Shown one piece after another: positions 33,899 to 36,071 of a DNA stretch of 64,000 nt (within the stretch, counting starts at the first letter, position 1; the number at the start of each line of letters is the position of its first letter). The notes under the pieces are model-generated. The model did not search any database. It worked only from the letters and a program-made list of their open reading frames with translations, and had not been told where the DNA came from. A program made the position numbers and the translations under genes. Source of the stretch: Steroidobacteraceae bacterium (GTDB lineage Bacteria; Pseudomonadota; Gammaproteobacteria; Steroidobacterales; Steroidobacteraceae); the NCBI GenBank assembly GCA_040902065.1, contig JBBDXX010000009.1, forward strand, positions 89,224-153,223, given 5' to 3'.

Positions 33899-35932
33899 TC
33901 ACGGAACGTGGGAATTCCCGGCCAGTTCGCCCGGAAATCGTGAGTGCAAGGCATCCCAGAGTCGGGACTCCGTAGGTCGCATTACGGGGTCCGGCCTTCC
34001 TTCCAACAGGCTGGGATGGGGGTCCTGACGGTTCGTGATGAAGTACTTTTGGCCGCCTTCCTGTGACGGCAGGGCGGCCAACAGCAGTTGCCCCGAAATC
34101 GCAGCGCGTTCTTTCTTCGCCAGAAGTTCCGCCCGACGTCCCGATTTGAACTGAACCCAACCAGTATCGGAATCGATTTCGTAATAGGCGCCAGCTTCTG
34201 ACAGAGCTGCGTCTTCATTGAATCTGCCCTGCAGGATTGACTCCGTATTGAAATCCGTTTCCGTGAATCGAATTCGATCCGCGAACTGATCTGCAGCTCC
34301 CGGCTCATTCCGCAGCGTTGGTGCAAGCGAAACGCCGTCGAAACCTTCGTCCGGTGGCGTGAGCTGCAGGAGATCCATAACGGTCGGAGCGATGTCTTCA
34401 AGTGACGCTGGCATTCCATGGTTGCGCCCCGAACCTGGAAATTTGCTTGGTCCATATCCGCGGAACGCTAGCACAACCTGGTATTGGTGCGGACTCATCA
34501 CGCTCGTGCCATGACCCCACATGGAGCCCCAGCGTTCCTCGATGCGCTGAACTTCGCGCATCATGCTGTCCTCCGGCCGGCCCATCGCTTCGCCGTGATC
34601 GGACAATATGACAACCAACGCGTTACGGAGCAGGCCGCGCCGCTCAAGCAGCACTATGACTTCACCAAATTGCTGGTCCATCTCGCGCACGGCATCGGCA
34701 TATGCCGCGCGGATCTCGAGCGGTCGTGAGCGCGTCAATGGTTGGCCGGCGCGGTTGTATGGCCAGTGCGCAAGTGTCAGGTGAATTGCCGCAAAGACCG
34801 GAGCTTTAACATCGAATTCGTGGCGCAGTCGCGACATAAAATGCGCTGGCCTGTAGGTCTGGTAGACGGCGCGATTCGCCCACGAATGCGGAAACAGCCA
34901 TCGCGCGGCCAAGGTCGTTGATACCAGGTTGCTGAGCGGCAGGTCATTGACCTTGCCGAGCAGAAAATCAGTGGCGCCAATCGGCGGAGTCACGAGGTGA
35001 TCGAAGCCGTAACTCTCGTCGATATTGGAAAAGCGCACTTCATCTGTGGCATAGAACGTCGCATAGCCTCGGGCCTTCAACAGAATTGGCAATGTGTCGC
35101 CCTCGGTCACCAATGGACGCGGCATCAGGTTAATGCGAGCGTTCGTGGATACGGGATGTCTGCCAGAAAGAATTGCGATCCAAGAACCAAAGGTTCGCGC
35201 CAGCGGTGTGGTGGAGTCGTTGAAACGGGCACTGCCGCCTAAAAAGGCGTCAACGTTCGGCGTGATGCTCTCGGCGGAATTCGTGCCCGCGAGGTCATTG
35301 CGCAAAGAATCCAGGCCAATCAGGATGATGTTGGGAACTGTCCCGGTCGTTGTCGTATCAGCAACGACTGACGGTTGCGAAAGCAAGCGAGATGCGATAA
35401 TTCCGCCGATCACGAGTGTCGCGAGTACGGTCAGACGCTGTCGCCGCGAATCACTCATCGTCCCGGTCCGAAGCGCTCTGAAGAAAGCAATGACTGCGGC
35501 GATTCCAAGCAGGAGGGCGATCCAGATTGCTGGCACCAGTCCAGCGATATCGTAAGCGAGAAGCGAGTTGCGCGATGAAAATTGCGAGCCTGGATACCAA
35601 GCGCTGTTGCCCGTCACGACGAAGACTCCGAATAGGCACCAGCAGACCCAGAGGGTCCAGGACGGATATTGGTTCAGGTATGGGAAACCGCGGCACAACA
35701 ATCGCGCATGGAGCCAGACCGCGAGCCCGAATGTGGCGTGGAGGGCAAGTAGTGCCGCCACGAAGTAAACGACACGGGACCAGAACGATGGGCCAAAAGT
35801 CTGATCCGCGTCGACGCCGAGCACTGCCCAGGCGTGCGTGCGTGTAAAGGTCAGATCGGACCATGCCCAGGCGATGCAACATCCGAGGAAAAGCCATCCC
35901 AGAGACGCGCCGAACCACCATTTCCGCACCAA
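33899..35932 (-). CDS. Membrane-anchored alkaline-phosphatase/sulfatase-superfamily enzyme (possible pilin/pilus-modifying transferase)
   Basis: The N-terminal ~200 aa carry about 5 hydrophobic helices. The following domain has NIILIGLDSLRND, FNDSTTPLARTFGSWIAILSGRHP, VVILSDHGEAMG and WGHGTS. Start proposed at TTG 35932 / GTG 35929, which follows a GGAGG; the ORF track extends to TTG 36007. The gene is visibly AT-richer than its flanks. Confidence 0.8.
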   Translation of the reverse strand: MVRKWWFGASLGWLFLGCCIAWAWSDLTFTRTHAWAVLGVDADQTFGPSFWSRVVYFVAALLALHATFGLAVWLHARLLCRGFPYLNQYPSWTLWVCWCLFGVFVVTGNSAWYPGSQFSSRNSLLAYDIAGLVPAIWIALLLGIAAVIAFFRALRTGTMSDSRRQRLTVLATLVIGGIIASRLLSQPSVVADTTTTGTVPNIILIGLDSLRNDLAGTNSAESITPNVDAFLGGSARFNDSTTPLARTFGSWIAILSGRHPVSTNARINLMPRPLVTEGDTLPILLKARGYATFYATDEVRFSNIDESYGFDHLVTPPIGATDFLLGKVNDLPLSNLVSTTLAARWLFPHSWANRAVYQTYRPAHFMSRLRHEFDVKAPVFAAIHLTLAHWPYNRAGQPLTRSRPLEIRAAYADAVREMDQQFGEVIVLLERRGLLRNALVVILSDHGEAMGRPEDSMMREVQRIEERWGSMWGHGTSVMSPHQYQVVLAFRGYGPSKFPGSGRNHGMPASLEDIAPTVMDLLQLTPPDEGFDGVSLAPTLRNEPGAADQFADRIRFTETDFNTESILQGRFNEDAALSEAGAYYEIDSDTGWVQFKSGRRAELLAKKERAAISGQLLLAALPSQEGGQKYFITNRQDPHPSLLEGRPDPVMRPTESRLWDALHSRFPGELAGNSHVP

Positions 35933-36018
35933 ATCGCACCTCCGACCCAATGGCCTCGGCAGTGTACGAGTCAAGTCCCGCAAGTGTGAAGGCCGCTGCG
36001 GCACCAAAGAGAACTCGC

Positions 36019-36050
36019 AAAAAAGAAGGCCCCTCCAGGGAGGGGCCTTC
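36019..36050 (-). terminator. Rho-independent terminator downstream of pilA
   Basis: On the minus strand: GAAGGCCCCT-CCCTGG-AGGGGCCTTC followed by TTTTTTG, a 10-bp GC-rich stem plus U-tract starting 22 nt after the pilA stop. Confidence 0.75.
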
Positions 36051-36071
36051 CAGGCTCAAGAGGTCTGGCGA

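Follow-up and report, generated by a model that had tools for sequence, protein, structure and literature searches.

Why does a gene for a membrane-bound enzyme of the alkaline-phosphatase superfamily stand between pilA and pilB, the genes of the major type IVa pilin and of the pilus extension ATPase? This question is raised by a stretch of 64,000 nucleotides (nt) from a Steroidobacteraceae genome (assembly GCA_040902065.1, contig JBBDXX010000009.1, positions 89,224 to 153,223), referred to here as the window, in which pilS, pilR, pilA, a terminator, the enzyme gene, pilB, pilC, pilD, coaE and zapD follow each other on the minus strand. The enzyme gene and its protein are labelled APX (coordinates in Table 1). 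By its position, by the terminator in front of it and by its linkage to pilin alleles, APX fits the description of a pilin accessory gene. The reading favored here is that its product would act as a pilin accessory enzyme transferring a phospho-containing head group, similarly to PptA of Neisseria, and to this reading, which draws on analogy, a rough probability of 0.5 was assigned. A pilus-related function of some kind is likely judging from the sequence comparisons. The narrower proposal that a phospho-form is added to pilin itself, again made by analogy, was given somewhat less than an even chance.

The open reading frame (ORF) of about 680 amino acids that an earlier note on this DNA had described between the pilA terminator and pilB was recovered with 676 amino acids. 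That this is a genuine gene and did not arise by chance in high-GC DNA is shown by its match to the Pfam family PF00884 (Sulfatase) with E = 4e-23 and by more than 1100 full-length homologues. The longest ORF covers 33899–36007 (702 codons, from a TTG). The probable start codon is TTG 35932 or GTG 35929, 6–9 nt past a GGAGG, yielding a protein of 676–677 amino acids, and homologues align from about residue 4 on. At NCBI, this protein is modelled with 641 amino acids (P0001, from a Steroidobacteraceae metagenome-assembled genome (MAG)) and begins 35 codons further downstream (window 35825–35929). The P0001 start would remove the first predicted membrane helix, and the start 35 codons upstream is supported by the Shine-Dalgarno sequence and by the homologues. 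Downstream, pilB opens the conserved block pilB-pilC-pilD-coaE-zapD.

First, the linkage to pilA was followed across genomes. Among 1.84 billion representatives, about 727 clusters formed at 50% identity belong to the APX family (E ≤ 1e-30). A scan of one genome per species gave 53 loci, all from MAGs of Steroidobacteraceae or unclassified Gammaproteobacteria, and APX lay inside the pil locus in 53/53. Wherever flanks were present, the order was sucC(-) pilS pilR pilA APX pilB pilC pilD coaE zapD, locus L041 excepted. A second subfamily, about 40% identical to window APX, was likewise found in the pil locus beside pilA in all seven contexts examined, with gene orders that differed (before, after, opposite strand, duplicated). 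These orders were pilA-APX-pilB; pilSR-APX-pilA-pilB; two convergent APX copies just upstream of pilA; pilA-APX-second sulfatase-x-x-pilB; APX and a Wzy_C gene between pilR and pilS; pilA-pilin-APX-Wzy_C-pilB; and pilA-APX-large gene-pilin-pilB. A 34%-identical member in L142 has the order pilA-APX-Wzy_C-pilB, and a 33%-identical member sits behind a cluster of minor-pilin-like genes. Overall, APX stands beside pilA in eight more distant loci, and in three of them (L140, L141 and L142) it has a neighbor encoding Wzy_C, the domain of the pilin O-oligosaccharyltransferases TfpO and PglL. One peripheral relative with 34% identity (L146) lies in an unrelated context; therefore, the association with pilA becomes weaker among the outermost members. 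The pilin accessory slot that the earlier note had proposed thus holds across the 53 genomes and through rearranged gene orders.

Second, the divergence of APX was compared with that of its neighbors. Among the related loci, identity to the window was about 90% for PilB, 86% for PilC and 85% for PilR, 55–69% for PilA and 44–48% for APX. The mean pairwise distance of APX (0.42) was close to that of the variable C-terminal part of PilA (0.41), with 0.10 for PilB. In a Mantel test, APX and PilA distances were correlated (r = 0.69, p < 5e-4), and the partial r was 0.54 when PilB was controlled for. The closest relative of the window locus, L053, has a PilB that is 97% and a PilR that is 93% identical. 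At the DNA level, both flanks are 84–87% identical between window and L053, and identity collapses from about codon 129 of pilA to 22 codons before the APX stop codon. The 27% identity of the APX proteins was rejected as proof of allele replacement since it is partly a frameshift artefact, and the DNA-level comparison was used instead. Frameshift-split genes, seen as fragmented tblastn matches, make protein identities unreliable in L053, L004, L011, L021, L027, L039, L048 and other long-read 'MFD' MAG loci.

Presence and absence were surveyed with PilB as the seed, so that the survey was unbiased toward APX. Within the same clade, APX is present in L056 and L064 and absent from L078, where a different 3' part of pilA is followed by a terminator and then by a remnant of APX, only its last ~10 codons. 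In sister lineages (PilB about 75% identical), pilA is mostly followed directly by pilB; APX occurs in L063 and L058. The last 10–22 APX codons are conserved at the DNA level and form the right-hand boundary of the cassette (window 33899–33966; L078 5818–5858), which was seen in two independent comparisons (window with L053, and L078 with L056). APX and the variable 3' part of pilA are a cassette that is exchanged or deleted by recombination. The co-occurrence of APX with the pilA allele, suggested beforehand as a check, is thus seen as co-variation, as block replacement relative to L053 and as joint loss in L078. Since divergence rate, co-divergence, block exchange, presence/absence and independent arrangements all point the same way, a functional tie between APX and pilA is argued beyond synteny.

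These data also bear on the possibility that APX has no function at the pilus, being an ancestral insertion between pilA and pilB that is inherited vertically and co-varies by hitch-hiking with a hypervariable pilA. The synteny of the whole region including coaE and zapD would fit such a history, as would the unrelated context of L146 and the APX copies without pilA in L041. It is nevertheless improbable: adjacency to pilA in at least six gene orders, with PilB down to ~69% identity, is unexpected under passive inheritance; only a few of the sister-lineage pilA-pilB loci contain APX and most do not, as would be the case for an accessory gene; and the catalytic residues are invariant despite 55–65% sequence divergence.

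Third, the pilA/APX gap was analyzed for signals of expression. A hairpin and T-run equivalent to those of the window were present in 24/24 related loci. The known pilin accessory cassettes also have a Rho-independent terminator between the pilin gene and the accessory gene (PMC11841053). Like these cassettes (tfpO, tfpW/X, tfpY and tfpZ of P. aeruginosa; tfpO of Acinetobacter), APX stands beside the major pilin gene and behind such a terminator, is tied to particular alleles of the pilin and occurs in some relatives but not in others. In most loci, APX starts only ~25–35 nt past the T-run; therefore, a separate APX promoter would not fit in between. No sigma-54 or other conserved promoter was found before APX in the related loci or the window, and a sigma-70-like match at 35961–35990 was dismissed as an APX promoter, being weak and no better than chance. 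Upstream of pilA, the sigma-54 pattern TGGCAYN5TTGCW has its single match within the 64 kb of the window (chance expectation 0.09), which fits the position of pilS and pilR directly upstream. An Rfam scan of 33500–37000 found nothing. From these signals, APX is probably expressed from the PilR/sigma-54 promoter, at a level attenuated by the pilA terminator, through which transcription would have to read.

The composition of the gene also differs from that of its surroundings. The G+C content at third codon positions (GC3) of APX in the window was 0.64, as compared to 0.78–0.89 for pilS, pilR, pilA, pilB, pilC, pilD, coaE and zapD, and APX had a lower GC3 than pilB in 18/18 related loci. The nearest homologue of window APX is only 65% identical. 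Together, low GC3 and distant nearest homologue look like the import of the window allele from elsewhere.

As regards the enzyme class, the four motifs quoted in the earlier note were all found in APX, namely NIILIGLDSLRND at residues 200–212, DSTTPLARTFGSWIAILSGRHP at 238–259, LSDHGEAMG at 442–450 and WGHGTS at 471–476. The formylglycine motif C/S-x-P-x-R is absent, as had been stated, and T246 holds the aligned position. The accompanying view that T-T-P-L-A-R carries a displaced Arg was based on the wrong register. In the sulfatase register, it is T246 in R-T-F-G-S-W-I-A-I-L-S-G-R that aligns with the formylglycine position, a stretch that corresponds in register to C-T-P-S-R-A-A-L-L-T-G-R in arylsulfatase A, and T-T-P-L-A-R was rejected as a degenerate CxPxR. 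Conservation was computed on an alignment of 240 family members. D207, T246, D296, H383, H388, D444, H445 and H473 were invariant; position +4 from T246 was W or L and never R; and position 208, the second Asp of the sulfatase D-D pair, was S in 232 sequences and A in eight.

The APX stretch AIHLTLAHWP parallels VLHTIGSHGP of Escherichia coli EptA (HxxxxHxP), and LSDHGEAMG, followed after 16 residues by MWGHG, parallels LSDHGESLGENGIYLHG of the same protein (LSDHGE...HG). In the structures of EptA and MCR-1, zinc and phosphate are bound by these residues, which surround a Thr nucleophile. By this comparison, we infer that D207 and D444-H445 are metal ligands, with H383/H388 and H473 completing a constellation of the phosphoryl-transfer type. 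APX is therefore classed, with high probability on sequence grounds, as a Thr-type phosphoryl-transfer enzyme and not a sulfatase. The preference for such a site over a true sulfatase had been voiced before; its support comes from the invariant T246 and the EptA-like motifs, not from T-T-P-L-A-R.

The search for relatives gave a different picture from that expected. By sequence, profile and fold, the top ranks in the PDB were soluble S1 sulfatases, choline sulfatases and phosphonate monoester hydrolases (E = 1e-10 with the single sequence, 4e-17 with the profile and ~1e-14 with Foldseek). The top 50 Foldseek matches in the PDB were sulfatases or phosphonate monoester hydrolases (template modelling (TM) score normalised to the target 0.48–0.63), and the likeness takes in the C-terminal subdomain. 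Pfam gave only Sulfatase, Phosphodiest and DUF229, and NCBIfam only sub-threshold sulfatase fragments. None of the NCBIfam Ept models matched APX, and the EptA_B_N domain PF08019 of Pfam had no match at E ≤ 0.01. With hhalign, E. coli EptA reached a probability of 69% over 77 columns only, with the membrane region unaligned, and E. coli OpgB 29%; an LtaS-type lipoteichoic acid primase chain in the PDB was a marginal match (E = 0.0085).

Membership of APX in the EptA/PptA, LtaS or OpgB families was rejected, as PF08019 is absent and the hhalign matches are local or weak. The predicted fold is sulfatase-like and closest to S1 sulfatases, so that the relatives suggested earlier (EptA, LtaS, OpgB and PptA types) were not the nearest ones. 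It had also been held that the proposal would fall if the best hits were soluble formylglycine sulfatases, or OpgB/LtaS orthologues at unrelated loci in relatives. The former was indeed observed for the best structural and profile hits, which is half of that condition.

APX shares with S1 sulfatases the alkaline-phosphatase-type alpha/beta fold and the C-terminal subdomain. Unlike these soluble enzymes, it is membrane-anchored, lacks C/S-x-P-x-R and has D207-S208 in place of D-D. LtaS and OpgB (MdoB) use a Thr nucleophile and phosphatidylglycerol as donor; they resemble APX as membrane-anchored PF00884 proteins and differ in matching its profile only weakly. With EptA, MCR-1 and EptC, APX has in common a five-helix membrane domain ahead of a periplasmic PF00884 domain and the motifs HxxxxHxP and LSDHGE-x-x-G...HG. 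In contrast to them, APX shows no detectable homology in the membrane domain, its first metal ligand would be Asp (GLDSLR) instead of Glu, its fold is nearer to S1 sulfatases, and its context is pilA and not LPS (lipopolysaccharide) or two-component resistance loci. Relative to EptA, it also carries the 16-residue insertion between DHGE and GHG.

With such relatives, APX might instead be a periplasmic hydrolase, i.e., a phosphodiesterase or sulfatase-like esterase that removes or trims a group or scavenges nutrients. The S1 sulfatases, choline sulfatases and phosphonate monoester hydrolases at the top of the profile and fold searches speak for it, as do the weak matches to the phosphodiesterase family PF01663. 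The lack of C/S-x-P-x-R with an invariant Thr in its place speaks against it, scavenging hydrolases do not usually carry a conserved membrane domain of five helices with an invariant polar residue (here N108), and scavenging leaves the pilA context and the co-divergence unexplained. Such a hydrolase was accordingly given little weight among the explanations.

The architecture was taken from an AlphaFold model built on 28 sequences (predicted local distance difference test (pLDDT) 76.6; predicted TM score (pTM) 0.79). Five N-terminal helices (5–37, 41–81, 89–111, 133–155 and 162–183) are followed in the model by an alpha/beta domain and a beta-rich C-terminal subdomain. Four of the five helices pass the Kyte-Doolittle threshold, and the charges comprise RK at the N-terminus and an RRQR loop before helix 5. 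Since hydropathy and charge indicate a topology with the N-terminus in and the C-terminus out, the catalytic domain is placed in the periplasm. APX is thus a predicted inner-membrane enzyme with a periplasmic catalytic domain on a five-helix anchor, which agrees with the multi-helix N-terminus and periplasmic-type domain described from the sequence before. The membrane domain is the most divergent part of the protein (mean pairwise distance 0.62 versus 0.36 for the remainder). Yet N108 is invariant in the motif N108-x-x-W-Y-P-x-S-x-F, located in the periplasmic loop past helix 3, and His64 in helix 2 is near-invariant, which argues that the membrane domain is more than an anchor.

The closest functional precedent is found in Neisseria. 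PptA, which is related to EptB, places phosphoethanolamine or phosphocholine on Ser68 of PilE and on its C-terminal tail 153-CRDASDAS-160, and phosphatidylethanolamine is its presumed donor (PMC4010543, PMC10434233). PptB is needed for phosphoglycerol on Ser69 of PilE (PMC10948894). The donated groups are presumed to come from phospholipid head groups. Similarly to PptA, APX is a member of the alkaline-phosphatase superfamily, is predicted to face the periplasmic side and has Thr at the nucleophile position together with LSDHGE...HG; similarly to PilE, the pilins of the window clade have a short tail after the last Cys. Unlike PptA, an EptB/EptA family member, APX lacks PF08019, aligns with EptA over the 77 columns only, and resembles sulfatases in its fold, which includes a C-terminal subdomain. 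A further difference is genomic: APX adjoins pilA, and pptA is not known to be linked to pilE.

The proposed course would run from read-through expression and catalytic chemistry to donor, pilin as acceptor and biological role, as follows. The N-terminal helix of pilin holds it in the inner membrane, and its globular domain faces the periplasm, where the contact with APX would take place ahead of assembly. A head group of the phospho-alcohol type (phosphoethanolamine, phosphoglycerol or phosphocholine) would be moved from a membrane phospholipid onto T246. From the phospho-Thr246 intermediate, it would pass to a hydroxyl of pilin, or, in loci that also encode a Wzy_C enzyme, to a glycan on the pilin. 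The modification may alter the pilus surface, e.g., towards pilus-specific phages or in adhesion.

Does the pilin itself carry a signature of such a modification? PilA of the window ends in C-R-A-G-F-G-G-A-A (36072–36098), a tail that is specific to its clade. After the last Cys, the clade consensus is C-R-[TSA]-G-[FY]-G-G-x(0-4), and this tail or a close variant (C-R-x-x-[FY]-[GS]...) was found in 119/120 of the nearest PilA homologues. Among ~45 pilins sampled from loci without APX, none had a GFGG-type tail. As a general acceptor motif, the tail was rejected: it is restricted to the clade, the pilins linked to the second APX subfamily lack it, the pilin of an in-clade APX locus (L014) has no tail, and 31 of the 120 tails (26%) contain neither Ser nor Thr. 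The GFGG tail may be a docking element. In a signature test of APX-linked pilins, the length of the D-region differed slightly (33.7 vs. 27.8 residues).

The acceptor could also be different with the same chemistry, namely a glycan (pilin- or lipid-linked), LPS or another envelope polymer; APX would then travel with the pilin genes since surface structures tend to be exchanged as a group. Genes for Wzy_C (TfpO/PglL-type) proteins adjoin APX in L140, L141 and L142, and glycosyltransferase, GtrA and methyltransferase genes lie near it in L136, L137 and L139. Moreover, phosphoethanolamine transferases such as EptC of Campylobacter accept lipid A, glycan and protein alike. On the other hand, the cassette contains no glycosylation gene in the window and in most of the 53 loci, the APX distances follow the variable region of the pilin, and APX has stayed adjacent specifically to pilA through several rearrangements. 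Another acceptor was therefore regarded as unlikely, if less so than hydrolysis or a lack of any pilus function.

A non-catalytic role as pilin chaperone or assembly factor on a sulfatase fold, comparable to TfpY/TfpZ, was also weighed, since some pilin accessory proteins serve assembly and not modification (PMC11841053). The presumed catalytic residues are invariant in the 240 sequences while the rest is strongly divergent, which renders this role highly improbable. As for the pilin accessory proteins in general, APX differs from them in that its chemistry would be phosphoryl transfer instead of glycosylation or help in assembly. In contrast to TfpO, it has no Wzy_C and only PF00884-type Pfam domains; TfpW, TfpX, TfpY and TfpZ were not compared directly.

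Several observations weigh against a PptA-like pilin accessory enzyme. Position alone is weak evidence, given that coaE and zapD are equally syntenic without a pilus function. L041 has two APX copies next to pilSR and no pilA, and the peripheral relative in L146 is elsewhere altogether. Clearly independent exchange events are few, and co-divergence could partly be hitch-hiking with a pilA under diversifying selection. The nearest folds and profiles belong to soluble sulfatases and phosphonate monoester hydrolases, with hydrolysis instead of transfer as a possible outcome, and beside a Wzy_C gene the acceptor could be glycan rather than protein. The pilins linked to APX showed no feature that all of them share, and the host organisms are all uncultured MAGs.

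In its broadest form, the favored reading is put forward only tentatively. APX would represent a large new class of pilin-island genes, with a sulfatase fold, a Thr nucleophile and a membrane domain of its own, co-evolving with the pilin and adding a phospho-group derived from phospholipid. It would have arisen independently of PptA/PptB and form, in environmental Gammaproteobacteria, a mobile module that diversifies the pilus surface (e.g., against pilus-specific phages), with the C-R-x-G-F-G-G tail for docking or recognition. Both accessory genes of pilins and enzymes that transfer phospho-forms to pilin have been described before; the APX family and its linkage to pilA are new. The earlier note had held that linkage of such an enzyme to pilA is not a described accessory class, and no report of a sulfatase/alkaline-phosphatase-superfamily gene in the pilA slot was found in the searchable open-access literature, where absence is not proof.

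A handful of pathogens are known to modify their pilins. Pilins glycosylated by TfpO, TfpW or PglL give protection from pilus-specific phages, and the phospho-forms added by PptA/PptB change antigenicity. If APX modifies pilin, decoration of type IV pili with phospho-form-type groups would be widespread in soil and freshwater bacteria, would have originated independently from a sulfatase-like scaffold, and would share one exchangeable cassette with the variable region of the pilin. About 700 clusters labelled 'sulfatase-like hydrolase/transferase' or 'arylsulfatase A-like enzyme' would gain a testable function, and pilA with APX offers a compact two-gene system for heterologous work.

Table 1. 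Coordinates of APX, its parts and neighboring features (window positions unless another locus is named).
Feature	Coordinates	Strand	Basis or remark
pilS	38140-39765	-	
pilR (sigma-54 activator)	36795 to ~38132	-	
Sigma-54 type promoter, TGGCAT-N5-TTGCT	36651-36666	-	Predicted; ~60 nt upstream of the pilA ATG
pilA, major type IVa pilin, 172 amino acids	36072-36590	-	Pfam Pilin 2e-21 and N_methyl 1e-9
Intrinsic terminator hairpin in the pilA/APX gap	36024-36051	-	12-bp stem (8 G-C pairs) and T-run; probable attenuator
APX gene, 676 codons and stop	33899-35929	-	Likely start GTG 35929 or TTG 35932 behind GGAGG
APX N-terminal membrane domain, residues 1-190	35360-35929	-	Five helices; AlphaFold helices, hydropathy, charge, conservation
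APX codon D207	35309-35311	-	
APX codon T246	35192-35194	-	Nucleophile position
APX periplasmic alkaline-phosphatase-superfamily catalytic domain, residues ~195-555	34265-35347	-	PF00884, invariance, register relative to sulfatases
APX codons D444-H445	34595-34600	-	
APX codon H473	34511-34513	-	
APX C-terminal beta-rich subdomain, residues 556-676	33902-34264	-	Family motif R-F-T-E-T-D-F-N-T; secondary structure, conservation
pilB, pilus extension ATPase	32023-33762	-	T2SSE 6e-149 and MshEN; ~90% identical across related loci
Wzy_C gene adjoining APX, L140	8145-9440		
Wzy_C gene adjoining APX, L141	8142-9461		
Wzy_C gene adjoining APX, L142	2705-4294		

Some further arrangements were noticed in the APX loci. 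The pilins of L140, L141 and L142 may bear glycans plus a second modification. In L136 (8079–11324), APX is followed by a shorter PF00884 protein (528 amino acids) and two genes without assigned identity (80 and 475 amino acids) before pilB, and the genes upstream of pilA include GT87, GtrA and methyltransferase genes. In the P0303 locus (8185–11717), a spermine-synthase-like protein (PF01564) of 1013 amino acids and a second pilin gene are encoded between APX and pilB.

In L041, the sole exception among the 53 loci, two convergent APX paralogues (6176–10380) follow directly past pilR, with no pilA or pilB nearby. A three-gene module occurs next to pilA/APX in L038 (4260–8378) and L041 (2081–6176) and probably in L043 between pilR and pilA; it encodes a protein of 436–451 amino acids without a Pfam match, a YidC-like insertase (PF02096) and a membrane protein of 684–768 amino acids with a weak PF00884 match. 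In the window itself, a small zinc-finger ORF at 28191–28400 (minus strand), downstream of zapD, resembles the gyrase inhibitor YacG as judged by eye only; as yacG, it would round off the usual coaE-zapD-yacG group.

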